Part shown: positions 189-57,129 of the stretch, piece by piece | Numbering within the stretch: position 1 is the stretch's first letter | Layout: the number at the start of each line of letters is the position of its first letter | From: a virus | Taxonomy: Duplodnaviria > Caudoviricetes | Length of the DNA stretch: 64,000 nt | Virus record (IMG/VR): IMGVR_UViG_3300020050_015887 | Coordinates: 1 to 64,000 of that record | Strand: one strand, 5' to 3' | Position numbers and translations under genes: made by a program | The notes under the pieces: model-generated | What the model was told of the DNA's origin: nothing | Databases searched by the model: none | Seen by the model: only the letters and a program-made list of their open reading frames with translations

Positions 189-719
189 ATGAAACCGTAT
201 TTAGCTTTAGACATTGAAACCACCGGTATTAATTTAGAAAAATCTCAGGTTATTCAATTGGCCGCTGTTTTTGTTAATCCTGGTCAACCGGAGTTGATTT
301 ATAATAAAATTATTTATCACAATGTGTTGCAATATGGTGAAAGTTTTGCCCTTGGTATGAACGGGTGGATTTTTGAAAGTATGCATAAACCAGGTGATAT
401 TCCAGTAGCATACCCAGAAGGTGCTAAAAGTCAATGGATGGATTTTATTGCAATGTGTTCAGAGTTATCCGGCGGAAAGATTACAGTTGCCGGTAAAAAC
501 GTAGCAGGATTTGATTTGCCTATTTTAAAAAATAATGGGTTTAGTGTAGATCAGTTTAAACATCGCGTTATTGACGTAGGAACACTTTATCTGCCAGATT
601 TTGGATATGTTCCAACACTTAATGAAATTAATAAACTTAATGGTAGAGAGGTTGTTTCACACAACGCATTAGATGATTGTTATGATGTAATTGCGGCAAT
701 CAACAAAAAAGTTTTATGA
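189..719 (+). CDS. DEDDh 3'-5' exonuclease (DnaQ/oligoribonuclease-like)
   Basis: ExoI ALDIETTG, ExoII GKNVAGFD, ExoIII SHNALDD; GGAG RBS upstream. Confidence 0.85.
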   Translation: MKPYLALDIETTGINLEKSQVIQLAAVFVNPGQPELIYNKIIYHNVLQYGESFALGMNGWIFESMHKPGDIPVAYPEGAKSQWMDFIAMCSELSGGKITVAGKNVAGFDLPILKNNGFSVDQFKHRVIDVGTLYLPDFGYVPTLNEINKLNGREVVSHNALDDCYDVIAAINKKVL

Positions 720-994
720 ACCATATTTGCTATAAATTATCGTATTTTTTTCACTCAGAAGAAAAATGTGTTATTATTAAACCTGAACAAATAAATATTT
801 TACGTGCTGAATATTTTAAAATGTTTGGTTGTTCAATTTCTGAAAAAAGTATAGATTATGATATTTATTGCACAAAACAATATGGGTTTGTTGAAGTTTT
901 AACCGTAAACTGGTCACATTTAATACAGGTTGTAGATAAAAAAATTACTTTTATGAATGAAATTAATAACTCTATTGAAAAAGTTTTAGCCTAA
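716..994 (+). CDS. small protein of the C-terminal-motif family (ends INNSIEKVLA)
   Basis: ATGA overlap with upstream gene; C-terminus matches the shared motif. Confidence 0.75.
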   Translation: MNHICYKLSYFFHSEEKCVIIKPEQINILRAEYFKMFGCSISEKSIDYDIYCTKQYGFVEVLTVNWSHLIQVVDKKITFMNEINNSIEKVLA

Positions 995-995
995 C

Positions 996-1151
996 ATGAA
1001 ACCTTATTATTTATTTGCTCAATCTGGGTTTGTTAAAGTTTATAAATCGTTTTCTGGTATTACAATTGAATCTAACTTAATTTCTTTTAATAAAGAACAG
1101 TTGATTAAACAACTAAAAGAACTTATTGTTTATTTGGAAAAACAAAAATAA
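996..1151 (+). CDS. small hypothetical protein (51 aa)
   Basis: Read by eye: MKPYYLFAQSG...YLEKQK; fills the gap exactly and has a TAATG overlap with the next gene. Confidence 0.55.
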   Translation: MKPYYLFAQSGFVKVYKSFSGITIESNLISFNKEQLIKQLKELIVYLEKQK

Positions 1152-37899: not shown

Positions 37900-37901
37900 A
37901 C

Positions 37902-37920
37902 ATATATAAATGTTAATTTA
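37902..37920 (-). promoter_or_regulatory. putative late promoter motif copy
   Basis: taaaTTAACATTTATATAT on the - strand, upstream of the HNH/holin block. Confidence 0.45.
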
Positions 37921-37987
37921 TGTATAAAAAAAAATAAAACCTCTTAAATTTTAATAGTTTAAGGGGTAAATTACAAATTATTATTGG

Positions 37988-38212
37988 TTAATTGTCTATT
38001 AACTTATTAACTGTGTTATTAATTTTTTCTTTCACCCATTCATCGTAATTTATAAAATAAATCATATCCGTTGGAACCATACTACTTATACTGATTTCAA
38101 TGTTCTGAAATTCAAATTCGGCTTTTATTTTTTCTGCATTAACAGGAGCCACCATAATATGAGGACGCATATTTGGTGTAGCAATTGGAATTATAATACA
38201 TTTATTCATCAA
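37988..38212 (-). CDS. C-terminal-motif family protein (INNTVNKLIDN)
   Basis: Shared C-terminal motif. Confidence 0.7.
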   Translation of the reverse strand: MMNKCIIIPIATPNMRPHIMVAPVNAEKIKAEFEFQNIEISISSMVPTDMIYFINYDEWVKEKINNTVNKLIDN

Positions 38213-38402
38213 TTAACTTATTAACATTAGTGTTGATTGTATGTTTTAGCATTTCTTCTTCATACCATTCATTAAACACCGTCCAAAACCCGCTTTTTGG
38301 TGGTGTACTATAAACTACAATTTGACCAGCACTATTAGACATTGTTTCTTGTGTGATGGTTGTTCCACTATCTATAATATAATATGGTGGTTGTTGTTTC
38401 AT
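38202..38402 (-). CDS. C-terminal-motif family protein (INTNVNKLIDE)
   Basis: Shared C-terminal motif; ATGA overlap. Confidence 0.7.
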   Translation of the reverse strand: MKQQPPYYIIDSGTTITQETMSNSAGQIVVYSTPPKSGFWTVFNEWYEEEMLKHTINTNVNKLIDE

Positions 38403-39726: not shown

Positions 39727-39940
39727 TTAATAATCCTTCAATGCATTGTTCAACGTCGTGTTCCATTTTTACTTTAAAGCGTGTTTGTAACCAATCACCA
39801 AATGTGTGTTCAAGTTCGTAATAAGTATCACCAACAATGTTTACAGTGTAAATTTTATCAACAACTAATACACCTTTAGCACCATGGTCATTATTAATAC
39901 AAATGACTTCAAAGGGTGGTTTCATTTTACTTGTCGCCAA
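39713..39940 (-). CDS. C-terminal-motif family protein (VEQCIEGLLNEKE)
   Basis: Shared motif; paralogous to 39150-39392. Confidence 0.7.
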   Translation of the reverse strand: MATSKMKPPFEVICINNDHGAKGVLVVDKIYTVNIVGDTYYELEHTFGDWLQTRFKVKMEHDVEQCIEGLLNEKE

Positions 39941-40685
39941 GATTTACAATATTACGTTTTTTATTTGGTTCTTTTTTAGCGGCTTTACTGTAAGCTTTAC
40001 AATCCATACAACGGTATTTACGAAATACAGATCGTTCCGTTCTGATAATGCCACAAGATTTAAGATGTTCGCCGCCACAAACAGGACAATTATCCGGTTT
40101 ATCAAAATCATTAACATTGGGATGAGTTTTCATCCAAGGACGAATATGTTTATAAACACCTTCCAACAAGAACACATCGTGACGATTATAACGCTCCATA
40201 TCTTTCCAAGACTGTGCGTCGTTTTTCATACAACCAAGCCACATATCATAGCCAGGATGTTTTAATTTACTTCCAACTTTAAAATATTTAGCTAAAGCGT
40301 CTAATGAATTACTATTAAATCCAAAATATTTTCTAGCTTCAAGTTTGGTGTCTAAAATTTTAAATGGACTAGGTGGTGGAAGATTGTGTACTGCAATTCT
40401 AGCGTTTACTTTTTTAATATCAAAACTTTTTCCGTTATGAGCTAAAATAATATCGGCTTCATCAAACAACTTCCATAACTTTTCAACTAATTTTTTATCA
40501 TTTGATTTTTGATAATTAGCTTGACGAATAAATTTAATATCTTTATCACCAAACCATTTATATGAAGCGGATAAAATTTCCCATTCACGTTCTACGTGGT
40601 GAACATTGGTTTCCCAAATTTTCCAAGTATGACCAACAGTTGCAGAAGTTTCGATGTCAAAGATTAAAATTTTCTGTTTCAACAC
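39927..40685 (-). CDS. RNase H-like 3'-5' exonuclease (RNase_H_2 type) with C-terminal zinc ribbon
   Basis: LIFDIETS, AHNGKSFD, YNRHDVFLL; CPVCG...CMDC. Confidence 0.8.
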   Translation of the reverse strand: MLKQKILIFDIETSATVGHTWKIWETNVHHVEREWEILSASYKWFGDKDIKFIRQANYQKSNDKKLVEKLWKLFDEADIILAHNGKSFDIKKVNARIAVHNLPPPSPFKILDTKLEARKYFGFNSNSLDALAKYFKVGSKLKHPGYDMWLGCMKNDAQSWKDMERYNRHDVFLLEGVYKHIRPWMKTHPNVNDFDKPDNCPVCGGEHLKSCGIIRTERSVFRKYRCMDCKAYSKAAKKEPNKKRNIVNLGDK

Positions 40686-43905: not shown

Positions 43906-44532
43906 TTATACATAAACTTTTTCAATTACACCAGTTCGTGTTAAATCCGTAAAGTTATTAATTTGAAACAAATGATAATCGATAAGACGCGCCGTCTGAT
44001 TTATACTAAGCTGTTCAAATAAATCTGTATCTTTTCTAAATCCAAAAACAACTATAGCTGTCCCTGGACCATTTTGTTTTTTTTCATAAATACCTTGTAA
44101 GGTAACAACACACCATTTTGATGAATCGACTACATTTTGTACTCCAAAACAACATGCAACATAATTATAAATAGAAAAACTACTAAAAAATTCATCCGGT
44201 AATGGTCTGTCATCTGCAAATTTACTATCTGGGAATAAAACAATGTTCATTTCTTCCCAATAGGATTTGCTCTGTTGTATGGTGTCATACCACTCACCTT
44301 TGGGTTCTACTATTAAAACTTGAATATTTTGTTTATTGCAATACTCTATTAAATCGGTTTTTTCTTTACGTGTAACTACTAAAGGAACTAAATTATATTT
44401 AGCACAATAATTAAAATGCCATTGAATTAATGGTTGATTGGTTACAGGGTCAATCAATAATTCTTTTGATTGATTGGGTAACATACCCATCCGTGTACCT
44501 AAACCTGCTGCCGGAATAATTGCGCGTTTCAT
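43906..44532 (-). CDS. sugar-1-phosphate nucleotidyltransferase (NTP_transferase family)
   Basis: MKRAIIPAAGLGTRM...SKELL signature. Confidence 0.8.
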   Translation of the reverse strand: MKRAIIPAAGLGTRMGMLPNQSKELLIDPVTNQPLIQWHFNYCAKYNLVPLVVTRKEKTDLIEYCNKQNIQVLIVEPKGEWYDTIQQSKSYWEEMNIVLFPDSKFADDRPLPDEFFSSFSIYNYVACCFGVQNVVDSSKWCVVTLQGIYEKKQNGPGTAIVVFGFRKDTDLFEQLSINQTARLIDYHLFQINNFTDLTRTGVIEKVYV

Positions 44533-44741
44533 TTTAATAAATCCTCTATTAACACGTCTTGATAAAAGTTTAAATAATTTAAATATTCATCTTCTAATAA
44601 AACAGGTTTTTCTAAATCCAAATATTTGTCGGTTTTGAGTTTATTTTTTTGAAAATGTTCTTTCCATGTAAAATATAAAAGTGGATCAATTTTTCTATTT
44701 GTTGTTGAACCATCTTTGTTTAAGATAATCATTATAATCAT
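44529..44741 (-). CDS. C-terminal-motif family protein (QDVLIEDLLK)
   Basis: Shared motif; tandem paralogue of 44745-44948. Confidence 0.7.
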   Translation of the reverse strand: MIIMIILNKDGSTTNRKIDPLLYFTWKEHFQKNKLKTDKYLDLEKPVLLEDEYLNYLNFYQDVLIEDLLK

Positions 44742-44744
44742 ACG

Positions 44745-44948
44745 TTATTTTAATAACTCATTTATTAAAGCGTCTTGTGTATAATTCATAAAATCTGAAT
44801 ATTCGTAATCATATAAAATTGGAATGGGAGCATTTAACCACACGTCCCTTGTTTTATGTTTGGTGTAATATTTTTTCCATTGTTTGTACTTTTCAGGATT
44901 TACGTTTTCTATTTCTGTTAATCCATTTTTTAATACATGTATTTTCAT
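44745..44948 (-). CDS. C-terminal-motif family protein (QDALINELLK)
   Basis: Shared motif; tandem paralogue of 44529-44741. Confidence 0.7.
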   Translation of the reverse strand: MKIHVLKNGLTEIENVNPEKYKQWKKYYTKHKTRDVWLNAPIPILYDYEYSDFMNYTQDALINELLK

Positions 44949-45745
44949 ATTTTATTTGAATATTGTTGTAAAAATAATAACAAATCATTACTAGGTTTAA
45001 ATCGGTTTTGATGTTTTGATATTTTATTTAAATCTTCCGGTAAACCAGAATATTGAAAACTACACAATTTAACAATTTTATTATCTAGTTTATTATGTAT
45101 CCAACAAACTCCGTTTTGTTCAATAATGTCTCTTTCGTGTAAATTATAATAAGCAACATTATAAGAATAATCTCTTAAGATTGTAACATTATCAACAAAA
45201 AAAGGCAAACAGTTTAACCAACTCTGATCTAAAAAAATACCACTACCAGATACACAATGGGTTTTTTGTGTATTGTATTGCCATTTAAGAAACTCTATGG
45301 TTTCTTTTGTGTTGACCCACGCCACGGTGTCACTATTAATATGACCAGTTTGTATCACACCAATCTGATTAGGAAAATTTTGGTCTACTGGAAGTGGTGT
45401 AAGAGTGTGAGGTAATACAACGTTGTTATTATTGTCTAATAATTTATCTGGGTAACAAAAAAATTCTACATCTGCGCCAGTAAATACAACCTTTTCATAT
45501 CCTTGTTCAAAAGCATCTAACACAATTAACGGTCTAATGCTACAGATAATTTGCAAAGGGTCTTTGTATTGTGTTGAGTTATATAAATGATTAATGTTAA
45601 TTACTTCATCAAAAACGGGCGTTTCATACCCAATGTGGTATAGAATTTGTGTTGCGTGTGGGACATGTTTTTTTACACTATCAAATAACACCTTATAATT
45701 TGATAGATATAAATCAGAGGCAATACAGATAAATGCCGTTTTCAT
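44945..45745 (-). CDS. putative GT-A glycosyltransferase
   Basis: RP..V, VFTGADVEFF, FLDQSWLN..P, YNVAYYNLHER, FQYSG pattern recalled from uncharacterised GT-A proteins. Confidence 0.65.
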   Translation of the reverse strand: MKTAFICIASDLYLSNYKVLFDSVKKHVPHATQILYHIGYETPVFDEVININHLYNSTQYKDPLQIICSIRPLIVLDAFEQGYEKVVFTGADVEFFCYPDKLLDNNNNVVLPHTLTPLPVDQNFPNQIGVIQTGHINSDTVAWVNTKETIEFLKWQYNTQKTHCVSGSGIFLDQSWLNCLPFFVDNVTILRDYSYNVAYYNLHERDIIEQNGVCWIHNKLDNKIVKLCSFQYSGLPEDLNKISKHQNRFKPSNDLLLFLQQYSNKI

Positions 45746-46350
45746 TATTCAATGTTCCAGGTTGGTTTATTAATTTTTTCAAGCACTAATAGTATTTCGT
45801 ATTGTCCCCAAGCGTGTTGTTCTGGTGGTATAGAATAGTTATATCCTTTATCGCCGTCTTCTAATACTCGTACTCTATAACTATTAGGTTCAAATGCTTG
45901 TTCAATTTCTGCCAACAACGTGGCCGGAGAATAGAATACGCGATGATCTCCATTATATCTACTGGGTTTATTAAGTTTCTTTTCGTAAAGAAATTGGTGC
46001 GGCACTGCAATAATTAAATGACCGCCAATCTTAATAACCCGCATCCATTCCCGTAGGGTTTCAATACGATTATCAATGTGCTCTAAAACGTGACTACTGT
46101 AAACCGCGTCTTGAGTGCTATCACCAAACGGCAAATGTAACCCGTCATACCCTGGAGTATTTAAATTAATAACTTTAGTGTTTGGTAATACACCAACGCT
46201 ATCAATATAACCATCCGCACCTATCTCAACTGTTTCACCGGACATATATTTATCAAAAAAACCATTGTCAATTTTATCTTCATACGTGCGGCTAGTTTCT
46301 TCACCAACCCTACGTTTAAGTAATTCTTTTTTATTATTTTTATAACTCAT
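45745..46350 (-). CDS. class I SAM-dependent methyltransferase (type 11-like)
   Basis: VEIGADG, LPFGDSTQDAVYSSHVLEHI, EWMRVIKIGGHLIIAVP. Confidence 0.85.
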   Translation of the reverse strand: MSYKNNKKELLKRRVGEETSRTYEDKIDNGFFDKYMSGETVEIGADGYIDSVGVLPNTKVINLNTPGYDGLHLPFGDSTQDAVYSSHVLEHIDNRIETLREWMRVIKIGGHLIIAVPHQFLYEKKLNKPSRYNGDHRVFYSPATLLAEIEQAFEPNSYRVRVLEDGDKGYNYSIPPEQHAWGQYEILLVLEKINKPTWNIE

Positions 46351-47321
46351 AAAATTTTATCCAATTCTAGTATAAATAAATCCGGCGTTAAAGATTTTAA
46401 ACACTCAATTTCAGCACCGGTTGCATTTTTATCGTAATAACACTTAGTAAAAGATTCATGATGAAAAGCAAATACAAAATTACTTTGACAAAACCGACAC
46501 TCAACAGAATCAGGCGGTATTACAGGTATAAAATTATATCCTTTAACTCCGTTGTTTCTAAACGGTACGCGATGTTGTGGGTCTACCGTTGTAAAACCAC
46601 ATACAACCGTGTTTGTTGGGTGTGTTGCAGCCAAATGAATTAAACCATTATCCAAACCAACTGTAGTTTTTGCTCCATATAAAATTTTAGCTGTTTCTAG
46701 AAGATTAGTTTGGTCTATTAAATTAATTCCTTTGTGGTAATTAATAGTGGTGTCAAATTTACCTTTAATAATATAATTAAATCCATTGTCGGTTTCTTTT
46801 TTACCTAAAAATACTGGAGTATAACCTTTAAACAACACATAATCAATAATAGAATTAATGGTGGTAGGTAAGAACTCTCTAACCGTGCTGGTAAAGCCGG
46901 TTGTAATAACCACATATTTATCTGGCAAGTTAAACTTAGTGATATTAACGTCATCAAGTTTAATAGGAAGGTAGTTTTTGTGTTTATCTTCTACTTGTTT
47001 ATTAATAAATAAATTAAACCCATGTTCAGTCATATGGTATGACAGGTTTGTGTGAGTATTAGAAGCTGAGGCTCTAGTCGGAAATAGTTTATTAAACTTA
47101 TCTTTTTGAGAAAACTTTTTTAATACAACTCTACCAGGAGTTAAAGAACGCTTAGCAATATCATAGAAAAAATCAGGTATCCAAACGTGGGGGATTACTT
47201 CAGGGTGATTTTGAATTACATATTCAATAGCTGGAAGTCTTGCAAGACAATCACCCAATCCACCATCGTTAAATAAGAAATTCACATGAAATGTTCTGTC
47301 CGCTTTATTATTTCTAAACAT
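46347..47321 (-). CDS. GT9 family (heptosyltransferase-like) glycosyltransferase
   Basis: GGLGDCL, NLIDQTNLLET, VGLDNGLIHLAA, C..CQ...C motif. Confidence 0.82.
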   Translation of the reverse strand: MFRNNKADRTFHVNFLFNDGGLGDCLARLPAIEYVIQNHPEVIPHVWIPDFFYDIAKRSLTPGRVVLKKFSQKDKFNKLFPTRASASNTHTNLSYHMTEHGFNLFINKQVEDKHKNYLPIKLDDVNITKFNLPDKYVVITTGFTSTVREFLPTTINSIIDYVLFKGYTPVFLGKKETDNGFNYIIKGKFDTTINYHKGINLIDQTNLLETAKILYGAKTTVGLDNGLIHLAATHPTNTVVCGFTTVDPQHRVPFRNNGVKGYNFIPVIPPDSVECRFCQSNFVFAFHHESFTKCYYDKNATGAEIECLKSLTPDLFILELDKIL

Positions 47322-48136
47322 TATTTACGGTCCTGAATTTCTTTTAATGTTGGAGCATATACCCCAAATTGTTCTACACAAACAGCAGCCGCCTTAGAAG
47401 CAAATTCAATTGCTTTGTTTAATTCATATCCGTTCATTATAGCATAAGTTAATGATGCAATACAAGTGTCACCACACCCAGTAACATCAACAACTCTAGT
47501 GCTTAGTGCTGGCATAGAATCAATAAAGTTTTGTTGTTGTGTTTTGGCGTGCATACCATTATCACCATCTGTAATAACAACAATTTGAGCATTAGTAATT
47601 TCAAATAGTTTTCTAAAAATTTTAGGCAGGCTAGTTTCTCCGGTAGCCGTTTTGGCTTCTTCTAAATTGGGTTTTAATAAATAACAATTTTTATAGTTAT
47701 TAAAATCTACATTCTTACTTGGATCAACAAAAGTTTTAATACCAGAAGAGAATACAGCATTATAAATTGCTGGAGTAAACCAACCCTTACCATAATCTTC
47801 AACAATAATAGCATCCGTGGTTGTTTTGTATAAGTTAATAAAATCTAAGATCTCTTGTTCAGAACAGTTTCTAGCGGGATAATCAACATCAATACGAGCT
47901 ATTTGTTTATCTTTTTCAAACACTCTAGTTTTAGTGATGGTGTTGCCATCTGCTTTTTCATGAACATTTACACCAAGTTTATACAAATTCGTAGCCACAT
48001 TATGAGACATTCCCCATTTTGTAATTTGATTATTAACTTTTAATACAGGAACAAGAATGTTTTCTGGTGATTGACGTGTGTGTTCGGTGTATAAATATAT
48101 ATCAGCGCACTGTTCGCCGAGTACCATGACATTCAT
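47321..48136 (-). CDS. heptose-7-phosphate kinase (PfkB family, HldE/RfaE kinase domain only)
   Basis: RQSPE..VPV, NVATNL..LG, EDYGKG, KPNLEEA, VVDVTGCGDT. Confidence 0.85.
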   Translation of the reverse strand: MNVMVLGEQCADIYLYTEHTRQSPENILVPVLKVNNQITKWGMSHNVATNLYKLGVNVHEKADGNTITKTRVFEKDKQIARIDVDYPARNCSEQEILDFINLYKTTTDAIIVEDYGKGWFTPAIYNAVFSSGIKTFVDPSKNVDFNNYKNCYLLKPNLEEAKTATGETSLPKIFRKLFEITNAQIVVITDGDNGMHAKTQQQNFIDSMPALSTRVVDVTGCGDTCIASLTYAIMNGYELNKAIEFASKAAAVCVEQFGVYAPTLKEIQDRK

Positions 48137-48384
48137 TTTAATACACTTTCTAAATTAGAATAAAATTTATCATTAAAAAAATCATTTAATAACCGAACTT
48201 CTCGTTCAAGGAATAAAAGTTTAACTATTTCTGTATTAGTGTTTTGTTTTCTAAAATTAATATGATCTTGTAAATACCACCGGTAATCATTATTTAATGA
48301 ATTTAAAAATTCATCCAATTGTTCTTGTGTTAAAGTAACAATTTTGTCTTTACTTCCACCTGCTTGAAAAATTACATATTTCAC
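48133..48384 (-). CDS. C-terminal-motif family protein (FYSNLESVLK)
   Basis: Shared motif; sits between gmhA and the kinase. Confidence 0.7.
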   Translation of the reverse strand: MKYVIFQAGGSKDKIVTLTQEQLDEFLNSLNNDYRWYLQDHINFRKQNTNTEIVKLLFLEREVRLLNDFFNDKFYSNLESVLK

Positions 48385-48953
48385 AGTAATTGTTCCTCAA
48401 CAAAATTACAAATAGAATGCATTAGCACTTCATGTACTGTTTGTATTGTGCTAGTTCTTTCAGATTGAGCATGAAATGTTTTCGTAGCTAAAAAACTACC
48501 TTTGCTATTATTTTTACCTGAAAACAAGATGCTTTTAATTTTATGTTGTTCGCAATATTCTAAAGCTTTTACTATATTTGCAGAATTACCGCTAGTAGAA
48601 AATGCAATGAATAAATCTTTATCCGTGGCCTTACCTTCTAGTTGCCGAGAAAACACTTGTTCATAACTATAGTCGTTTGCAATAGCTGTAATGGTAGCTA
48701 AATCGGTGGTTAAAGCCTCTACATTGAGCGCCTTGCGTTCTTTTTCAAACCGTCCTACCAATTCCCCTGCCATGTGGGAGGCGCCGCTAGCAGACCCGCC
48801 GTTTCCAGCAATAAATATCTTATTACCTGTTTGTATAGTTTTTGTGATGATGTTCTGAATAGATTTTAAAGTAGTTTTATTAGCAATAATAGAATTGGTC
48901 AGTGAGGTTTGCACTTCTAAAGTGTGGTTTTGAAAGTAGTGTTGTAAATTCAT
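48381..48953 (-). CDS. gmhA: phosphoheptose isomerase
   Basis: AGNGGSA, TAIANDYSYEQVFSRQ, FSTSGNSANIVKAL, IQTVH SIS-domain motifs. Confidence 0.92.
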   Translation of the reverse strand: MNLQHYFQNHTLEVQTSLTNSIIANKTTLKSIQNIITKTIQTGNKIFIAGNGGSASGASHMAGELVGRFEKERKALNVEALTTDLATITAIANDYSYEQVFSRQLEGKATDKDLFIAFSTSGNSANIVKALEYCEQHKIKSILFSGKNNSKGSFLATKTFHAQSERTSTIQTVHEVLMHSICNFVEEQLL

Positions 48954-49168
48954 TTTAATAACTTATCAATAGATTTACTAACTTTTTTTTCTAGTTTAAA
49001 CTGTCTTAACAATTTTCTAATTTTTTTATCTTCAGAATAAGACATAGAAGGAAAATCTTGATCAATCCAAATAACTTTACTATCATCTAAAACGTTAGAA
49101 ATTTTTTGTATAAATTCTTTACTTACATATTCTTTTTTACCATTAAAATATAATATATAATGTTTCAT
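48950..49168 (-). CDS. C-terminal-motif family protein (VSKSIDKLLK)
   Basis: Shared motif; ATGA overlaps at both ends. Confidence 0.7.
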   Translation of the reverse strand: MKHYILYFNGKKEYVSKEFIQKISNVLDDSKVIWIDQDFPSMSYSEDKKIRKLLRQFKLEKKVSKSIDKLLK

Positions 49169-49644
49169 GGTAGGTTTAATCCAGATATTACTTTTAATAA
49201 AATCCAGTTATTCTTAGCACAAATTCCTGCCAATTGACCACGCGGATCATCATCCACCAATATAACTTGATCGCCTTTTTTTTGATATTTTTTAATCTCT
49301 TTTTGTTTAAAATATCCATAACTTGTTTTATCATTTGATGAACGCATTATTAATTTACGTTTAGGAAATTTATGTTTGGTTAACCATTTTACGGTTATTG
49401 CTCTATACTTTTCATCTCTGCTAGTTAGATAAACAAACTTACCTAATTTTCTAGCAAGTGTACGCATAGACTTAATAACTTTGTCATTAAGCATGTCATG
49501 TTCTTTTTGAACAAGGTCCAACCAATGTAAATATTCAGCACTATAATGCGTTTTATTTTTAGGTGCTTTAATAGACTTAAGACGGCGTGAGCTATCACAC
49601 ACCGTACCGTCTAAATCAACATAAATTTTTACTTTATTCTTCAT
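49165..49644 (-). CDS. HAD-superfamily phosphatase
   Basis: YVDLDGT motif I, LTSR motif II, LVDDDP motif IV; ATG 49644. Confidence 0.8.
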   Translation of the reverse strand: MKNKVKIYVDLDGTVCDSSRRLKSIKAPKNKTHYSAEYLHWLDLVQKEHDMLNDKVIKSMRTLARKLGKFVYLTSRDEKYRAITVKWLTKHKFPKRKLIMRSSNDKTSYGYFKQKEIKKYQKKGDQVILVDDDPRGQLAGICAKNNWILLKVISGLNLP

Positions 49645-49659
49645 AATAAATATTTGCAA

Positions 49660-49862
49660 GCGGGTTAGGCTGAGTAGCTACGCTCTCGATTAACCAATGC
49701 TACCGTGATCAGCGGCTTCCAGATTGATCACCTAACCTATTTTAACGCAACTTTGCGTGAGCAAAACGCAATATTACCGCCTGCTGGTCCCTCTGAGCTT
49801 TCGCAGCGAGGGGTCACTTGTTTGGAGCATGTATTGCATCTATGTCTGCAACACCAAACAAA
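49660..49862 (-). ncRNA. candidate structured RNA (unassigned)
   Basis: GC-rich 200-nt intergenic stretch with several nested helices and a GAAA tetraloop; no tRNA or known riboswitch signature recognised. Confidence 0.45.
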
Positions 49863-49863
49863 C

Positions 49864-51066
49864 TTAAACCATCTTTACAGTTTTACCAACCTTTTTCAAA
49901 GGATGATCAACTTGTCCTTGTTTAGAAATAATCCAAAGGATGTTATTATTAAGATGATATTTTCTATTGGCTTCACCATAATAACCGTCCGTCAACACGA
50001 CCGTAAGATCTGGTTGAAGCTTTTCAACCGTCTCTAACACACAGTTTGGATCGGTACCACCACCAGTAATATCTTTAGAGTTTAAATCTTTGCGCAATTT
50101 GTATTTAATTGTGTTACGCATTGCTGTATCCCAAAAACTTAGCTTACAATCATTCTCACCAACTTTTAAGAAACCATCAATAACCTTTAAGCACTCATTA
50201 ATTTCTTTATATGAAATACTACCGGACACATCCATAAAAAAGTGAATGCTTGGTAATTTAGCTTTGGTTGTACCAGGAGCATAAACACCATAACGTTTAT
50301 TAGGCCGGTTCCATGTGCTTGCACGGTTTTTTGACGTTGCAGTTTTCTTAATACAAGCAGCTAAAATACGTTTATAGTCAAGCGCACCAATTTGGCTATC
50401 AATCTTTTGAATCAAATCCCGCATAAAATCTGGAATGTTGCTATGACCAAACTTTGTTTTATCAATAGTGCGTTCAAAAATATCTTTGGTTTGTTCTAAA
50501 AATTTACGTTTTTCACTCTCAGACAATTGGTCAAACCAATCGTGAACGTCAAATTCTCCACCCTCACCAGTATATTTCTTTAGTTCTTCTTTAGTTTCTT
50601 CAGTAAGATTTTCAGGATGTTCTAAAAGGTCTAGATACAACTCAAACAATTTTTGTTCAGGAAAAGGTTGTGGTTTCTTATTATCATCAATATAAGAAAA
50701 CTTCTTAACGTCAACACAATCAGCAGGCAAGCCTGGAATGTATTGATTAATTGCCATATCCATAGCAATGTTTAATAATTTTTTATCATTCTTTTCAAAC
50801 TCAAACGCTCTAAAAATATGTTGGTGAACAAAATGAAGAATTTCATGCCACAATACGGCACCACGTTCAACCGTTGTTTTAGCAGCAAACCATTCATAAT
50901 TGATTTCAATCCAAAACAATGCGCGTTCTTTATCGTACATTAACGCAGCAGTTGGAATACGATTTGTATATCGAATATTAACTTCTTGAATTAATGCAGC
51001 ATAGAATGCATTTTTCTTAGAAAGTTCGTAAATTGCAGATTCAAGATATTTGCTATCAAAATTCAT
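49864..51066 (-). CDS. DUF2201-type metallopeptidase-like plus VWA domain protein
   Basis: WHEILHFVHQH, NIAMDMAINQ, WNRPNKR, MDVSGSI (MIDAS), GGGTD, LTDGY. Confidence 0.88.
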   Translation of the reverse strand: MNFDSKYLESAIYELSKKNAFYAALIQEVNIRYTNRIPTAALMYDKERALFWIEINYEWFAAKTTVERGAVLWHEILHFVHQHIFRAFEFEKNDKKLLNIAMDMAINQYIPGLPADCVDVKKFSYIDDNKKPQPFPEQKLFELYLDLLEHPENLTEETKEELKKYTGEGGEFDVHDWFDQLSESEKRKFLEQTKDIFERTIDKTKFGHSNIPDFMRDLIQKIDSQIGALDYKRILAACIKKTATSKNRASTWNRPNKRYGVYAPGTTKAKLPSIHFFMDVSGSISYKEINECLKVIDGFLKVGENDCKLSFWDTAMRNTIKYKLRKDLNSKDITGGGTDPNCVLETVEKLQPDLTVVLTDGYYGEANRKYHLNNNILWIISKQGQVDHPLKKVGKTVKMV

Positions 51067-51083
51067 TTGTTCACCTTTTAATA

Positions 51084-51112
51084 ATTATAATACAAATCTA
51101 TAATAAAAGCAA
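51084..51112 (-). promoter_or_regulatory. sigma70-like promoter
   Basis: TTGCTT-17 nt-TATAAT upstream of the VWA gene. Confidence 0.6.
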
Positions 51113-51120
51113 GAAAAATA

Positions 51121-51148
51121 TGTCCCGTTTTGGTCACACTACGGGACA
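51121..51148 (-). terminator. hairpin / probable intrinsic terminator after the AAA gene
   Basis: TGTCCCGT...ACGGGACA stem followed by ATATTTTTC on the - strand. Confidence 0.6.
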
Positions 51149-51200
51149 AGAGTGTCGAAAGGAGAGAAGCCGATAGCTTCAATTGACCATCCAGACGATA

Positions 51201-52256
51201 TTAGTCTTTTAGACGAGATTTTAGGTGTTCAGTAAGTTCTTTACTGCTACCAATGATACGCTCAGCCAACTTTTCTTCATTACGAACAAAACTTAGTTCT
51301 TTAATAAGAACAATAGCTTGGTCGGCTGGAATGGTGAGTAACACTTCTCTTAGCAAGTCATCAGAAATTTCATTTGTTTTAATGATATCCTTAATGGTGA
51401 TGCTAATTTGAGCGTTATTATACGATTTTGGATTGCTGTATGTTTCTAGGCGACCCAATGCCTTTTTCTTAGTTTTTGCATTAGCTAAATTCTCATACAA
51501 CACGGGTACTTCATTGTACAAGAAGCTGTAAAATGCATTACCGTAGTTATCACCAAGAATAGATTGAAATACTTCAAGTTCCATTTCTCGGGGAATACCA
51601 GCGGCTAATACACTATTTACTTGAGCAAAAGAACGTGGCGACACATACTTATTACCAGTGTTCTCAGCAACTTTTTCTGGGTTAACGTATTTCCAGATAC
51701 CACTTTGCACAAACATAACCAGACGTTCATCCCATTTGTTAACTTCCATATAATCAACAAACGTTTTTTGGTCATATTCTACTTCAAACATGACGAAACG
51801 ATTTTTAAGTGCGCTATCCATGACGTTAACATCATAGGATTCGGTTTCTGGGTTAATGGCACCAACAATCAACCATCCTTCGGGAAGATGGTATTCATGG
51901 ATCTTACGGTCGGTGAGAAGTTGCATAAACGTGTTCATAACGCTTGTAGTACCGCGATTGGGTTCTTCAAGTAGCAACACCCCTTCACCGGTAGTGGGAA
52001 GCCAGCTTGGTGGATTATGCACAGTAACTTGACGATCACCAACTAGCGTGATGCTAGGAAATCCAATGATGTCTGGTGCCTCAAGATATGCTGCACGCAA
52101 ATCAATAAATGGCATGTTATTTTCAGCACACCATTGTTGAATTACACTACTTTTCGCGACTCCTGGGGGTCCCACAAACAGCGGGTTAAGCAACCCCTTG
52201 GATTTACGAACATTTCTTGCCATGTCTAGAACGTTTTTAATTTGCGATGGTTTCAT
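51201..52256 (-). CDS. MoxR-like AAA+ ATPase
   Basis: GPPGVAKS Walker A, LLLEEPNR Walker B, GAINP sensor 1, DSALKNRF Arg finger, SPRS. Confidence 0.88.
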   Translation of the reverse strand: MKPSQIKNVLDMARNVRKSKGLLNPLFVGPPGVAKSSVIQQWCAENNMPFIDLRAAYLEAPDIIGFPSITLVGDRQVTVHNPPSWLPTTGEGVLLLEEPNRGTTSVMNTFMQLLTDRKIHEYHLPEGWLIVGAINPETESYDVNVMDSALKNRFVMFEVEYDQKTFVDYMEVNKWDERLVMFVQSGIWKYVNPEKVAENTGNKYVSPRSFAQVNSVLAAGIPREMELEVFQSILGDNYGNAFYSFLYNEVPVLYENLANAKTKKKALGRLETYSNPKSYNNAQISITIKDIIKTNEISDDLLREVLLTIPADQAIVLIKELSFVRNEEKLAERIIGSSKELTEHLKSRLKD

Positions 52257-52311
52257 TTAACTACTATCTCCTTTTGGTTAATGCTTTATATTATGTATAT
52301 TAACATGACTA

Positions 52312-52560
52312 TTATAATTTGTCTAGTAAATTGTTTACGGTGGTAGAAATAATTTCTTTTTTTAAAGCGTTTTCACAATCTTTTTTAGTTGCTCTATTAT
52401 CTAACCACAAAGCCATTTTATCTTTTATAACACTTTTTAAATGATTTGTTTGATATGTTAAATCTTCTTTTCCAAATTCAGGATAAAATACAGTAAGTAA
52501 AAATATATATTCGTTTAAAGTTACATAAATTTCATCACAGCCAAGTTTAATACAAATCAT
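52312..52560 (-). CDS. C-terminal-motif family protein (ISTTVNNLLDKL)
   Basis: Shared motif. Confidence 0.7.
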   Translation of the reverse strand: MICIKLGCDEIYVTLNEYIFLLTVFYPEFGKEDLTYQTNHLKSVIKDKMALWLDNRATKKDCENALKKEIISTTVNNLLDKL

Positions 52561-52561
52561 A

Positions 52562-52822
52562 TTATTTTAATAATTTATCTATGTTAGTGGTAAAATTATC
52601 TTTTAAAATTAATTCATTAATAATGGGCATTCCCTTTGCGTCATAGTCGGTATCCAACACATAATTAATGTTTTGGCTAATAAAACAAGCTACATTCATT
52701 TTTTTAAATAAACCGGTAGATAAATAATCTTTGTGAACAAAATAAACACTTTCCATATCTTTATCTTCAACGTTTTTATTTAATGCCAAATCGGTGATAT
52801 AATCGTATAAAAAATATCTCAT
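52562..52822 (-). CDS. C-terminal-motif family protein (FTTNIDKLLK)
   Basis: Shared motif. Confidence 0.7.
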   Translation of the reverse strand: MRYFLYDYITDLALNKNVEDKDMESVYFVHKDYLSTGLFKKMNVACFISQNINYVLDTDYDAKGMPIINELILKDNFTTNIDKLLK

Positions 52823-53295
52823 AAAATTACCTCAAGTTGTTGATTTACCAATGTAATTTGAGTGGGTAAAGAAGCGTCAAATACACACAAACAGCTAGGT
52901 TTTGTATTACTGGACGTACTGCCGTCAAATTGAATTCTACCAGAAATAATAAAAATTTGATTAGGTAGGCTATCTTTAAAATATTTGGTTGTTATCTTCT
53001 CTAGGGGTATGAGCATAACAATTTTAGCACCCTTATCACGCTCTATATGGGCTTTAGCAAGCCAATCATACGCATTTGAATAGGGAGGGTTACACCAAGC
53101 ATATCCGTTGATTTTATGCCATTCTTGTTGAAAACTGTCTATTCCTTGGTTGTAATAATAGCCGTTAATACATTTAGAATTGTGTGTTTCACATGCTAAA
53201 TCCCACACAAAATTGTATTTGTTGTTCACGATATTATAAAACCAATCCGGTGTTACCCAATTGTCCTTGCCACTAGAATGTTCAACAAGTTTCAT
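52819..53295 (-). CDS. phage DNA N6-adenine methyltransferase (Dam-type)
   Basis: DNWVTPDWF, FVWDLAC, WCNPPYS, ISGRIQF. Confidence 0.85.
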   Translation of the reverse strand: MKLVEHSSGKDNWVTPDWFYNIVNNKYNFVWDLACETHNSKCINGYYYNQGIDSFQQEWHKINGYAWCNPPYSNAYDWLAKAHIERDKGAKIVMLIPLEKITTKYFKDSLPNQIFIISGRIQFDGSTSSNTKPSCLCVFDASLPTQITLVNQQLEVIL

Positions 53296-53549
53296 GCCAA
53301 CACCTTTTCAATAACATTATTGATGTTACGTTGTTTTAACCAAATAATAAAATTGGGGTTATGTTGAAATAACGGGTCAAGAGTTAAAAAATACGGTTTT
53401 TGAAGTGTATTTAAATAGGTATAAAAATAATCTTTATTTACAAAACCGTTATAACCGTCATCGTTATAAAACGACAAACAAAATTCTCTGTACAACTCAG
53501 GGTCAACTTGTATTTCTTCTGTTCCAATTTTTATTGTTAATAACTTCAT
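53292..53549 (-). CDS. C-terminal-motif family protein (INNVIEKVLA)
   Basis: Shared motif; ATGA overlaps. Confidence 0.75.
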   Translation of the reverse strand: MKLLTIKIGTEEIQVDPELYREFCLSFYNDDGYNGFVNKDYFYTYLNTLQKPYFLTLDPLFQHNPNFIIWLKQRNINNVIEKVLA

Positions 53550-53911
53550 AACTTATTATACCCCGTTTCAGTTGTATAATAAACATTTTTTATTCCATAT
53601 TGCTTAATAATTTCTTGACACACTGAACAAGGTTTAGACATGGCCATGCTACCGTCTTGCAATTCTCTATACACGTAAATGCTTCCACCTTGGGTTTCTT
53701 CTATAGACAATCCCAATAAGGTTTTAAATTCTGCATGGATATAACCACCCCAACCTTTACTTTTTGTATGGGTTTTAGTCATGTCGTTAGAAGCAAAGTT
53801 TAATACCCGATGTTTTTTATCTAGAACAACGGCACCAAGTTTAAATTTACTATTGGATTTTTGGGCAGACTTCTTGGCTAGTCTAAAAAATTGCTTTTTC
53901 ATTTTAAACAT
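53546..53911 (-). CDS. cytidine/dCMP deaminase-like zinc protein
   Basis: KLGAVV, IHAEF, SKPCSVC, GIKNVYYT. Confidence 0.85.
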   Translation of the reverse strand: MFKMKKQFFRLAKKSAQKSNSKFKLGAVVLDKKHRVLNFASNDMTKTHTKSKGWGGYIHAEFKTLLGLSIEETQGGSIYVYRELQDGSMAMSKPCSVCQEIIKQYGIKNVYYTTETGYNKL

Positions 53912-54180
53912 TTCTCAACATTATCTAAAATGATTAATTGTAATTTATGTTCTTTATATATTTCATGAACATCACAGCCATCAAACCAAATACAAAATTT
54001 GCCGTCTATATTTTTACAACACCAATTATATAATAAAAAATCATCGATTTGTTCAAATAAATAATTAATCTGTGTTTCTGAAAGAACTATAGTTGTTAAA
54101 GGTTGCGCGTCCGATTTAACTCCTTCTCCGTCTGGTGTCATGTCGGCAACACTATAAATTTTTATTATCCGATCCATCAC
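53899..54180 (-). CDS. C-terminal-motif family protein (ILDNVEKCLK)
   Basis: Shared motif. Confidence 0.7.
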   Translation of the reverse strand: MMDRIIKIYSVADMTPDGEGVKSDAQPLTTIVLSETQINYLFEQIDDFLLYNWCCKNIDGKFCIWFDGCDVHEIYKEHKLQLIILDNVEKCLK

Positions 54181-54189
54181 ATTATTATA

Positions 54190-54456
54190 TCACAGGCTAT
54201 TAATAATGTCATCTACTGGTTTACTAAAAATTACTTCTTTAATTAATTTTACCGTTTCAGGAAAACTATATACAATTGGTCCTTTGTCGCCATGTATTTG
54301 TTTAAATGAACCTAAGCTGCTATGTTTAAATTTATAATAATTATCATGTGCTTTGACTATTGCTTCAGCCGTAGATTCGTTTACGATATACGTTGAAACG
54401 GTGAAACTACCATCATTTGTATCGTTATATTCAATTAATTGAATATTATATTGCAT
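54190..54456 (-). CDS. C-terminal-motif family protein (FSKPVDDIINSL)
   Basis: Shared motif. Confidence 0.6.
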   Translation of the reverse strand: MQYNIQLIEYNDTNDGSFTVSTYIVNESTAEAIVKAHDNYYKFKHSSLGSFKQIHGDKGPIVYSFPETVKLIKEVIFSKPVDDIINSL

Positions 54457-55120
54457 TTAATAACTCTTTGTTTTTCTTAAGTGAATAATTAATAAACACT
54501 TCTTTACCGAGAACAGGCCAAAATAATTTAGCTGTATTGTATAACTTTTTTACAAGTGCCATCTTATCGTACTCGCCTGTAAAATTTTCACATAGTTCTA
54601 AAGTACCATCTTCTTTGAAAAACAACCAAACTCTATCACCTTCTTTATACTCAGTGTCTTCAATAGCATCAACAATTTTTGTTTCATTTGTGCGTTCTGA
54701 AGTCATAGTTGTTTGACTGAGAGTTTTTCTACTACTCCAACGTTTAACGTCTTGAACGTTTAAAGCTTCTTTAATATACCTGTGATATACTTCTACGTAA
54801 TCATTTTTATCGTATAGAATGCTATTGATAACATCTTTAATAAAATCACGTAGTGCTTGTTCGCGATTACCAGAACGGATAGCACTTCCCTTGTAAGTGA
54901 TATCCCCGTCACTATCTAACATTACGTAGTTCTTAGCCTTGAACACTATCGTTTTACGGAAATACCCATCTGGTGCAAAATTAATAAGCTCAGGAAATAA
55001 TCCGTTTAACTCTTCTAATAAATCGTGTTGTTCTTGTTCTGTAAATTCAGAACCATCTGGTTTATTAACCATAATCGAATCAGTGTCAGCATTGGTTAAA
55101 ATAAAATTATAGGTTTTCAT
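54446..55120 (-). CDS. family B DNA polymerase, C-terminal part
   Basis: Motif C NADTDSI, KAKNY, YKGS. Confidence 0.85.
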   Translation of the reverse strand: MKTYNFILTNADTDSIMVNKPDGSEFTEQEQHDLLEELNGLFPELINFAPDGYFRKTIVFKAKNYVMLDSDGDITYKGSAIRSGNREQALRDFIKDVINSILYDKNDYVEVYHRYIKEALNVQDVKRWSSRKTLSQTTMTSERTNETKIVDAIEDTEYKEGDRVWLFFKEDGTLELCENFTGEYDKMALVKKLYNTAKLFWPVLGKEVFINYSLKKNKELLNAI

Positions 55121-55389
55121 TTTAATACACTCTCAACAACATTATTAATTTTGTTTTGTTGTAAAACGGTTTCAATTGTCAAATATATAGGCTTAGGAAC
55201 AAAAAATAATTCATCTTGTATGTTACCAAATACAAAACCACCTTGTGATACTCTATATTTGTTTAAAACCCAATATAATGACATCTTTTTTTGTTGAATA
55301 AAATATTTATCCAAAATAATTTCTTTTGAATTATCAATTTCTAAACGACTATTTTCAAGAGTATAAATTACAATCATTCTACATTCCAT
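55117..55389 (-). CDS. C-terminal-motif family protein (INNVVESVLK) between the two PolB halves
   Basis: Shared motif; overlaps both polymerase ORFs. Confidence 0.7.
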   Translation of the reverse strand: MECRMIVIYTLENSRLEIDNSKEIILDKYFIQQKKMSLYWVLNKYRVSQGGFVFGNIQDELFFVPKPIYLTIETVLQQNKINNVVESVLK

Positions 55390-56900
55390 TCTTTATAAGA
55401 TTTTCCCGTTGCCCATTTAATGGATGTTTCTAAAATTTCTCTACCTTTTCTAGTCACTTCAGAAGCAGAATTAGAATCGTTAAAACACAAACCGGGCGCA
55501 CCAAGCAACCCGTAGGAACTATTGATAAAAATTTTCCTTGAGTTACTTACATCTTCATAATACTTATTTTTGGTTTTATTGTATTCTTGTTTGTCTAGAA
55601 GTCTTTGGTCTGTAAAATACTTTAAGATTTTAAGGAACACTTTCTGTGGGTCTTTAAATTTAGGGTAAATTTCATATTGCAACATGACGCTAGGGTACAA
55701 ACTGCTGATATCCCACTTGATGCAATTTGACCAAATCCCGGGATTGCCCCAGCTAATTGCTCCTGTAAACTCTCTACCCTCACTAGTTTTAGGAATGCTA
55801 TGTCCTTGTTGTAAATAAGCACGCACAAGCATTGAATTAACTTGGCTACCAGTTGCACTTTCAACAATTGATTGAAATGCTTTAGGTACGTTTTGAGCAA
55901 AATAAAATGTTGGTGCAATCATTAAATCATACAATTTTAATGCATCGTCGGCGTCGTGTTCGCAATATTGTTTAATCTTTTCCCATTCTGTTTTATCTTT
56001 ATAATTATGTCTAATGGTAGATGCATCATAAAATACTCGATTAGGGTCTTCCAAACCTTCTTTACTGATAATAGGTTTTAACCCATAGCTATCGTATTTC
56101 TTTTTAACAACATCATATCTAATAGCAACAAACAAAGTGTCACAAATTTCACGTCCAAAACAACGCACCTTATGATAGTTTAAAAATTGTGTCTGGTCTT
56201 TACGAAACTTACTTTCATATTGTTCAAACACAATGTCACTACCGTCTCTACCTAATTCTAAAGATGTTAGGTGTTCTTGTGCGCATAAATTTAAATAGGG
56301 TAGGTCAAACGAATAGATATTATGTCCAATGATAATTGAAGGGTCTTTTTCTCTTACCCATTTGCACCAAGCTTTAATCATTTCACCCTGGTTTGCATAA
56401 TCATCGTAAGCAAATAGTTTACGTTCAATAACGCCATTTTTGCGGAATGTATTAGAAATTAATAAAACCTTGTCTTTCGATGTATATTCTAAACTTGTGG
56501 TTTCAATGTCAAAAGAAAGAATTGACACTTCTTTATAATCCATACCTTTATAATAAGTGTATCCTTCTTTAACTAGAAAAGATTCTTTAGCGTCATAAAT
56601 AGAATAAATGTCTTTTTCTTTAAAAAACCGACGAGCTTTAATAAAGTCTAATCTTTCATTAAACTTTTTACCCCACTTGTAATGTAAGTCACCTTTTAAA
56701 CGAATGCTTTTTTCATCAAGCTTTTCATTAGATAAAATCCAATAACTATTTTTTACAAATTGTTTGGTAATGGTGCCGTCTTGGTTTTCAATAAATAATA
56801 ACGTTTGTTCATCTAAGGGTTCAACAGAAACAATACGCTCAAGGTCTTGTTTACCGTACACTAAATTTTTAATTTCATTGTCCATTATTATGGGTTCCAA
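55374..56900 (-). CDS. family B DNA polymerase, N-terminal part (exonuclease plus motifs A and B)
   Basis: SFDIETT, IIGHNIYSFDLPYL, YCEHD, WDISSLYPS, KIFINSSYGLLG. Confidence 0.9.
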   Translation of the reverse strand: MEPIIMDNEIKNLVYGKQDLERIVSVEPLDEQTLLFIENQDGTITKQFVKNSYWILSNEKLDEKSIRLKGDLHYKWGKKFNERLDFIKARRFFKEKDIYSIYDAKESFLVKEGYTYYKGMDYKEVSILSFDIETTSLEYTSKDKVLLISNTFRKNGVIERKLFAYDDYANQGEMIKAWCKWVREKDPSIIIGHNIYSFDLPYLNLCAQEHLTSLELGRDGSDIVFEQYESKFRKDQTQFLNYHKVRCFGREICDTLFVAIRYDVVKKKYDSYGLKPIISKEGLEDPNRVFYDASTIRHNYKDKTEWEKIKQYCEHDADDALKLYDLMIAPTFYFAQNVPKAFQSIVESATGSQVNSMLVRAYLQQGHSIPKTSEGREFTGAISWGNPGIWSNCIKWDISSLYPSVMLQYEIYPKFKDPQKVFLKILKYFTDQRLLDKQEYNKTKNKYYEDVSNSRKIFINSSYGLLGAPGLCFNDSNSASEVTRKGREILETSIKWATGKSYKEWNVE

Positions 56901-57129
56901 TTAATTGATCTAGTTTATTGGTTAATTTATTATTAAACTGTTGTTGATGAACTTCTAACATAATTTGATCAATCGTTAAATTCATAAAACAAGATTGATC
57001 GTTATTTTTAAAATAGATAATACAATGGCTATTAGATTCTTGATAGATATAGGCAACGTCTTCGTATTTAAAACAACACTTGTTGCCGTCGGTACCTGTT
57101 ACAATAATCCAATCACCAAGCATTAGCAC
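56875..57129 (-). CDS. C-terminal-motif family protein (LTNKLDQLIG...)
   Basis: Shared motif near the C-terminus. Confidence 0.6.
   Translation of the reverse strand: MLMLGDWIIVTGTDGNKCCFKYEDVAYIYQESNSHCIIYFKNNDQSCFMNLTIDQIMLEVHQQQFNNKLTNKLDQLIGTHNNGQ

Follow-up and report, generated by a model that had tools for sequence, protein, structure and literature searches.

A shared C-terminal helix on small, fast-changing proteins of an 84.5 kb phage genome

Tagged genes in the window

The window analyzed here is the first 64 kb (64,000 nucleotides) of one 84.5 kb phage contig, IMG/VR record IMGVR_UViG_3300020050_015887 (CheckV completeness, 97%; GC content, ~33%). The phage is myovirus-like; no close cultured phage was found in the reference collection, and a TerL search of viral contigs returned no relatives. 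At 0.7 kb and from 38 to 84 kb, among replication and metabolism genes, lie small genes whose products end in the same amphipathic helix of 10 to 13 residues, with the consensus h-[ND]-[NK]-x-[IV]-[ED]-K-[VLI]-L-K. We refer to this element as the tag and to the rest of each protein as its body. A previous examination of the window, hereafter the sequence-only reading, had listed at least 16 copies, and all 16 tails that it quoted are present where it had placed them. They are given below with their strand, the residues preceding the stop codon and the score of each tail against a position matrix of the tag.

716..994, + strand: tagged gene, 92 amino acids, tail INNSIEKVLA; 22.2 bits; the next start does not overlap the stop
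37988..38212, - strand: tagged gene, 73 amino acids (ATG at 38209), tail INNTVNKLIDN; 21.7 bits; 88-nt gap downstream
38202..38402, - strand: tagged gene, 66 amino acids, tail INTNVNKLIDE; 20.1 bits
39150..39392, - strand: tagged gene, 80 amino acids, type-B (DUF6501-like) body, tail VEENIEKVLA; 17.5 bits
39713..39940, - strand: tagged gene, 70 amino acids from the ATG at 39925, type-B body, tail VEQCIEGLLNEKE; 16.8 bits
44529..44741, - strand: half tag only (last 6 to 7 residues of the tag), 70 amino acids, tail LIEDLLK; -3.8 bits with the full matrix
44745..44948, - strand: half tag only (last 6 to 7 residues of the tag), 67 amino acids, tail LINELLK; -2.8 bits with the full matrix
48133..48384, - strand: tagged gene, 83 amino acids, tail FYSNLESVLK; 14.6 bits; top held-out match of the body profile (11 bits)
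48950..49168, - strand: tagged gene, 72 amino acids, tail VSKSIDKLLK; 20.6 bits
52312..52560, - strand: tagged gene, 82 amino acids, tail ISTTVNNLLDKL; 16.0 bits; 55-nt gap downstream
52562..52822, - strand: tagged gene, 86 amino acids, tail FTTNIDKLLK; 19.6 bits; TAA stop, without ATGA overlap
53292..53549, - strand: tagged gene, 85 amino acids, tail INNVIEKVLA; 22.5 bits
53899..54180, - strand: tagged gene, 80 to 93 amino acids depending on the start chosen (80 in the independent assembly L080), tail ILDNVEKCLK; 16.3 bits
54190..54456, - strand: tagged gene, 88 amino acids, tail FSKPVDDIINSL; 14.2 bits
55117..55389, - strand: tagged gene, 86 to 90 amino acids, between the two halves of a split family B DNA polymerase (PolB), tail INNVVESVLK; 22.1 bits
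56875..57129, - strand: doubtful copy, LTNKLDQLIG with 6 further residues after it; 1.7 bits

By this scoring 13 of the 16 copies are strong, those at 44529 and 44745 (paralogs of each other, E = 4e-10) carry half a tag, and the one at 56875 is weak, while a possible 17th copy at 2577 is not a member. The total had nevertheless been under-counted: the whole genome holds 31 strong copies, about one gene in five, 18 of them beyond the window at 64.5 to 83.6 kb. Fifteen tagged genes form a tandem array at 79.4 to 83.6 kb (genome coordinates), headed by sigma-70-like promoter matches, which are consensus hits only, in AT-rich DNA.

The motif is concentrated at C termini

To assess the frequency of the motif, we used our own set of 160 genes covering the whole genome. 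In 30 of them the regular expression of the sequence-only reading matched at most 4 residues from the C terminus, against 0.6 ± 0.7 expected when the last 30 residues were shuffled (maximum, 4 in 2,000 shuffles). Only 2 of 508 non-gene open reading frame ends, out-of-frame ones included, carried it. Its density at C termini was 62 times the internal density, and 26 of the 69 genes of 60 to 100 amino acids possessed it. The motif is thus more frequent at these C termini than in either control, as had been proposed.

The matrix scores were bimodal (at least 14 bits in 31 genes, 9.8 in one and no more than 5.1 in the rest), a split that is partly circular because the matrix was trained on the same tags. 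Two measures address the tails differently. Positions left free by the regular expression (1, 2, 3, 6 and 9) still carry 0.8 to 1.1 bits each, with preferences for N/D, N/K, N/S/T, K and K, respectively, and a motif-agnostic index of tail sharing reached z = 11.2 in this genome. Information is sharply confined: the ten tag positions hold 0.8 to 2.1 bits each, the preceding four, which are lysine rich, 0.4 to 0.8, and those further upstream approximately none. In all copies the tag lies 0 to 5 residues from the C terminus, with exactly one residue after the motif in 19 of 30; three tags end in VLA and most in LLK. The conserved polar positions (N, N/K, E/D and K) flank the hydrophobic face of the helix, a pattern more suggestive of specific recognition than of packing alone.

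The tagged proteins are small (~55 to 125 amino acids) and, as a class, acidic and soluble. Their median isoelectric point is 5.4, compared to 8.8 for untagged small proteins (p = 0.0009), and transmembrane-like segments were found in 1 of 35 of them versus 19 of 66 untagged small proteins.

The tag is conserved at the protein level

A helix encoded at the very end of a gene might merely be the translation of DNA that serves the downstream gene, either a ribosome-binding site with an ATGA start-stop overlap or a promoter. Several features are of the kind that such an element would leave: an ATGA overlap is found at the end of 10 of the 31 tags, the terminal lysine is often AAA before TGA, a Shine-Dalgarno-like GAGAAGGTG occurs in some copies, and G-ending codons are over-used at tag positions 5 to 7 (GAG, 7/17 or 41% versus 14%; AAG, 9/15 or 60% versus 18%; GTG, 4/9 or 44% versus 13%). 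We nevertheless assign this explanation a negligible probability. For eight of the 31 tags no gene follows within 15 nt (two of these are at convergent gene ends that face each other at 83.1 kb), and in seven more the stop is not overlapped; at 37988 the 88-nt gap means that no ribosome-binding site is needed there. Furthermore, 30 nt are conserved, tag codon choice overall equals genome-wide usage (p = 0.20), out-of-frame and non-gene ends are nearly free of the motif, and many other genes that end in AAATGA or have an ATGA overlap lack it. Orthologs also show synonymous changes inside conserved tags. A DNA-level artifact is excluded, and with it a translational-coupling element of the kind that the sequence-only reading had named among the findings that would overturn its view. 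The G-ending excess is also seen in tags without a downstream gene and may reflect a Shine-Dalgarno-like element superimposed on the protein constraint in some copies, or inherited DNA. We also considered whether the tag DNA might be read as a promoter (TTGAAA, from I-E-K) and rejected this, as the codon before it varies freely at its third position.

Two short contigs from sister strains, L047 and L048, are collinear with the window at 37.4 to 40.7 kb and allowed us to compare tagged genes with their neighbors. The untagged genes are 97 to 100% identical to their counterparts at the protein level (RNase H-like protein, 98%; dGTP diphosphohydrolase, 97%; dUTPase, 97%; 38399 product, 100%). The tagged genes interleaved with them are 51%, 55 to 64%, 74% and 92% identical, and all of them keep the tag. 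The highest value belongs to the 37988 gene and its L048 ortholog. For 38202 the L048 ortholog is 74% identical, with five synonymous and two nonsynonymous changes in the tag, and the 39150 product has two tag-bearing orthologs, P0129 (64%) and P0131 (55%). The 39713 gene and its L047 ortholog share 51% of residues overall and 12 of 14 in the tail.

Nei-Gojobori estimates of synonymous (dS) and nonsynonymous (dN) divergence separated three classes: core genes (dS, 0.36; dN, 0.027; dN/dS, 0.075), tagged bodies (dS, 0.46; dN, 0.28; dN/dS, 0.62) and, from five ortholog pairs with 60 tag codons, the tags themselves (dS, 0.355; dN, 0.086; dN/dS, 0.24). Nonsynonymous change differed between tag and body (Fisher p = 1e-5). 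Purifying selection on the protein therefore preserves the tag helix, whereas the bodies take amino acid changes about 10 times faster than the neighboring core genes. The sequence-only reading had argued for protein-level selection from three IEKVLA copies with different synonymous codons; the codons are as quoted, and the tag divergence between sister strains, together with normal codon usage, bears the argument out. Its description of the bodies as a variable library also holds, in the sense of a fast-changing set. Since dS is alike in the three classes, the tagged genes were inherited with their neighbors and not swapped in as ancient alleles.

Strains also differ by the gain or loss of whole tagged genes. 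At the site of the 88-nt gap, L048 possesses one more tagged gene than this genome, and the difference is a clean whole-gene insertion or deletion: the alignment stops directly behind the upstream tag and starts again within the following core gene. Contig L080 represents the same strain (its tagged genes are all 100% identical) and added no divergence data.

Strain divergence along the window is mosaic, with dS of 0.16 to 0.7 relative to relatives at 37405 to 40685 and near identity to the independent contig L080 at 43906 to 57913. Two further observations concern the region beyond the window. Relative to G000 79741-80696, the 99% identical variant L040 has an inverted segment, and one of its breakpoints coincides with the upstream boundary of the tag in the 79700-79993 gene; the inversion removes the tag from this gene and could be either a genuine rearrangement or a chimera of the assembly. 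In the tagged gene at G000 81620-81871 (L002:7620-7871), eight nonsynonymous and two synonymous differences separate these same two near-identical strains, while most neighboring genes show none.

The tag is found on at least two types of body

We next consider what the tag is attached to. When tag-stripped bodies were compared by BLASTP, the only similar pair was that of the neighbors 44529 and 44745; an iterated profile search on the same bodies gave nothing significant, and neither Pfam nor PHROGs provided a family for any of 33 tagged proteins. In a cross-validation, a profile built from 13 tag-stripped bodies at 79 to 84 kb gave higher scores to the 21 tagged bodies held out of training than to 66 untagged small proteins (p = 3e-5; N-terminal 45 residues alone, p = 0.018). 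The claim that the bodies are mostly unrelated was accordingly too strong, although at least two unrelated types, A and B, can be told apart.

Type A was modeled with AlphaFold2 from the 80489 product and an alignment of 24 paralogs (predicted local distance difference test score [pLDDT], 75; predicted template modeling score, 0.50). The model consists of a beta-hairpin, two helices, a third strand and a C-terminal helix of 26 residues, the last ten of which are the tag. Its order of elements, beta1-beta2-alpha1-alpha2-beta3-alpha3, is that of the BTB/POZ-Skp1-Elongin C core, and giant-virus BTB proteins were the top Foldseek matches among viral models (BFVD), at a marginal level (E = 3.8e-3; TM-score, 0.51). 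In a wide VIA-align search, matches reached Z values of at most 4.5, were mixed with other folds and lay within noise. Foldseek against the PDB gave no match at E ≤ 0.001, Pfam and a PDB sequence-profile search gave none, and ESM Atlas matches stayed below a TM-score of 0.5. We therefore treat a BTB/Skp1 fold for the predicted type-A body as a lead only.

Type B comprises the mutually related products of 39150, 39713 and 72347 (39150 versus 72347, E = 4e-7; the other, E = 1e-3), whose AlphaFold2 model was too poor for use (pLDDT, 46). An exhaustive profile search with this body returned two kinds of match, small tagged orthologs on other contigs and proteins of 1,200 to 1,900 amino acids. The latter, the uncharacterized P0127, P0128 and P0130, contain the type-B body 10 to 11 times in tandem, without the tag, and match the profile with E values down to 4.5e-20. 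In the same stretch they pass the cutoff of PF20111 (DUF6501), with a weak match to DUF7244. Scanned directly against Pfam, the type-B proteins of the window matched only DUF7244, below threshold (E = 0.057), so that their link to DUF6501 is indirect, via the repeat proteins. Unlike the tagged proteins, the repeats stop at a ...RF-x-h-V motif and have no C-terminal helix.

When types A and B were compared by hhalign, the 13 tag columns alone aligned. Because only the tag aligns and the type-B body recurs without it, the helix is an add-on to at least one independent domain and not part of a single fold. Judged by these alignments, the tag is portable and present on at least two unrelated bodies, in line with the earlier proposal of a common tag on different bodies.

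These data bear directly on the main rival to a docking function, namely, that the tagged proteins form one hyper-divergent paralog family, generated by repeated duplication, in which the helix is an inherited structural or self-association (dimerization) element with no shared external partner. The tandem array of 15 genes fits repeated duplication, the body divergence given above would soon erase similarity between paralogs, the tag-stripped profile favors held-out tagged bodies, and in the type-A model the tag ends a long helix that continues from the body. However, type B is an independent DUF6501-like domain that is helix-free elsewhere and has only the tag in common with type A, and BLASTP and iterated profiles revealed no significant similarity between bodies. 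The weak signal of the body profile could be compositional, and simple packing would not need the conserved polar residues of the tag. We consider a single family of this kind rather unlikely.

The tag is restricted to a narrow lineage

The PolB of this phage has thousands of homologs at 53 to 66% identity, on metagenomic contigs of 60 to 120 kb. No tagged small gene was found in six syntenic PolB neighborhoods (102 kb) or in 30 loci recovered through the RNase H-like gene (193 kb; 31 to 49% identity); the sole match of 10 bits or more across both sets was the own tail of a glycosyltransferase. The motif-agnostic index was likewise unremarkable in most of these loci. We saw the tag only in this genome and in the near-identical or sister-strain contigs L040, L047, L048, L049 and L080. 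In the sequences compared, it is restricted to a narrow lineage and missing from relatives at 31 to 66% core-protein identity; the description of the family as genome-wide thus applies across this genome and not to its wider relatives. The tagged proteins as such are also less shared, since homologs in the PolB neighborhoods of six relatives were found for none of 36 tagged proteins versus 12 of 82 untagged small proteins (p = 0.017). A scan of IMG/VR with a degenerate DNA pattern returned 37 loci with one match each, in unrelated open reading frames (HK97-gp10-like proteins, a Vsr/DUF559-type endonuclease), which we discarded as chance matches to a generic helix.

Other common tails were noticed in two relatives. 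In a distant one (L077:601-3313; 31% RNase H identity; 50% GC), four proteins of 69 to 106 amino acids, weakly similar to each other (E ~1e-3), terminate in [ST]-Q-x-G-F-x-x-P. In the other (L044:19933-20572), two adjacent genes just after the gene for a VWA protein end in QFHEKFDKVIDGD and KFHTKFDSMLEGD. Their pattern, F-H-x-K-F-D-x-h-h-x-G-D, is loosely like the tail QFHKNLEKLLK of this genome, and from this likeness the L044 tails could be a diverged cousin of the tag.

Genome setting

The tagged genes are embedded in the following arrangement.

4.4-33.7 kb, + strand: portal, protease-like protein, HK97-type major head protein and more virion structural genes
11.8-13.0 kb: head gene, in a strand block opposite to that of the tagged genes at 38 to 84 kb
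34 kb onward, - strand: replication and nucleotide-metabolism genes
strand block, replication and recombination: DnaB-primase, split family B polymerase, ERF recombinase, PD-(D/E)XK nuclease
strand block, nucleotide metabolism: dUTPase, two deaminases, IMPDH/GMP-reductase with intein
strand block, other: MoxR-like AAA+ ATPase adjoining a DUF2201 metallopeptidase/VWA protein; S8 protease; peptide deformylase; sugar-modification cluster

ClpP was not found in this genome. The sugar-modification cluster (43906-49659, - strand) is co-oriented, with tagged genes in between, and encodes an HAD phosphatase, an SIS-domain protein, a PfkB kinase, a GT9 heptosyltransferase-like protein and a methyltransferase; this gene content points to a Gram-negative host. 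The family B polymerase is encoded in two pieces on the - strand, a 508-amino-acid exonuclease/N-terminal half (55374-56900) and a 224-amino-acid C-terminal half (54446-55120). About half of the relatives have an unsplit PolB of ~715 amino acids, and in L043 the gap is occupied by an HNH/NUMOD homing endonuclease. The intein (Hint and LAGLIDADG matches) lies inside the IMPDH/GMP-reductase gene at 41721-43853 (- strand). In the relative L044 the IMPDH of 358 amino acids is uninterrupted, and the intein is instead in the DnaB-primase.

Comparison with known addressing systems

No description of a phage family like the tagged set was found in the literature, consistent with the statement of the sequence-only reading that it did not recognize a described system. 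Three known arrangements come close in one respect or another.

The T4-type internal proteins (IPI, IPII, IPIII and Alt) are diverse, fast-evolving small proteins with a common short terminal peptide, the capsid targeting sequence, and their variable parts are thought to counter host defenses (PMC3012670). As in T4, diverse bodies here share only a short terminal peptide, the one part that aligns between body types. However, T4 internal proteins carry their signal at the N terminus, where the prohead protease cleaves it off, whereas the tag lies at the extreme C terminus; on that count the tagged proteins do not belong to the T4 group. They also differ in being acidic, in their gene location among replication genes and in their far greater number (at least 31). 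As far as we found, a constant handle on hypervariable bodies has been described in tailed phages only for this N-terminal capsid signal.

In family 1 encapsulins, a short (~10-residue) C-terminal peptide on unrelated cargo docks inside an HK97-fold shell (PMC11664910). The tag is comparable in length and location, its information being confined to the last 10 to 14 residues. Encapsulin cargo genes, however, lie beside the shell gene, while the tagged genes are dispersed in early and replication regions, away from the head gene. The targeting peptide of encapsulins has a Gly/Ser/Leu-rich consensus, which differs from the charged amphipathic helix seen here.

Both systems raise the possibility of capsid loading, in which the helix would bind the scaffold or the inner HK97-fold shell and the proteins would be packaged and injected with the DNA, like T4 internal proteins. 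Genes for a portal, a protease-like protein and an HK97-type major head protein are present in this phage, and hypervariable bodies are what a conflict with the host would produce. The T-even internal proteins (PMC3012670) provide the precedent of diverse defense-countering proteins that share only a targeting sequence, and the encapsulins (PMC11664910) that of cargo loading by C-terminal peptides of similar length. Even so, the mostly acidic tagged proteins are a poor fit for co-packaging with DNA, their genes are located outside the head module, among replication genes and in the array with sigma-70-like promoter matches, the T4 signal is N-terminal and cleaved off, and more than 30 cargo species would be unusual. 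Capsid loading is, in our estimation, improbable.

The third arrangement is found in poxviruses, whose ankyrin-repeat proteins combine variable target-binding bodies with a C-terminal PRANC/F-box-like helical module that plugs into one host machine. The likeness lies in a multigene family with variable bodies and a common short C-terminal helical module. The poxvirus proteins, however, are eukaryotic, act with ubiquitin ligases and have one body type, in contrast to a bacterial host and at least two body types here. We counted this logic for the reading that the helix is a degron or protease-adaptor handle, read by a host or phage unfoldase or protease, which would time early proteins or deliver targets bound by the bodies. 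The strict confinement of the motif to the extreme C terminus, with exactly one following residue in 19 of 30 copies, the three copies ending in VLA, the AAA+ ATPase adjoining the metallopeptidase/VWA protein and the S8 protease all speak for such a handle. On the other side, the genome has no ClpP, relatives without the tag have the ATPase, the VWA protein and the S8 protease as well, and the LLK ending of most tags resembles, to our knowledge, no known bacterial degron. We regard this possibility as distinctly improbable.

A candidate docking or addressing handle

Taken as a whole, the sequence evidence leads us to propose, with about even confidence, that the helix serves as a portable handle for docking or addressing, carried by variable accessory proteins, an estimate which includes the capsid-loading and protease/degron sub-cases. 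The helix would bring many variable bodies to one shared partner, which could be the capsid interior, a protease or unfoldase, or a host hub. The bodies would be the specificity or effector parts, and their quick change would come from meeting variable host factors.

Several points weigh against this proposal. Many of the bodies may be old, divergent paralogs that inherited the helix, or may share a composition bias, and the tag may be partly structural, as it continues the long helix of the body in the type-A model. The estimate of selection is a small one, coming from a single 3 kb segment. Finally, the candidate hubs, that is, the MoxR-like AAA+ ATPase, the VWA/metallopeptidase protein and the S8 protease, are not particular to tagged genomes; because of their presence in untagged relatives, and with ClpP missing, no hub can be named.

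More tentatively, phages may repeatedly evolve private address systems, in which one phage or host reader would recognize a lineage-specific C-terminal helix on dozens of fast-evolving small effectors. A single handle would then route a changing arsenal to one place, be it a protease, the capsid, or a hub of replication or transcription. With its 84.5 kb and at least 31 clients, the present genome would be a compact case, and the L077 tails would represent an analogous arrangement. We see this as possible.

In other host-parasite systems, effector arsenals are marked by this pairing of a constant handle with hypervariable bodies. Should the helix prove to be a docking label, a pulldown with one peptide would identify the machine fed by about one-fifth of the genes of this phage, and would open to functional study dozens of ORFans (genes without known relatives) that databases leave unexplained. 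The tag also offers a simple sequence rule for finding accessory and conflict genes in uncultured phage genomes, and in infected cells it could be used as a portable device to route proteins.

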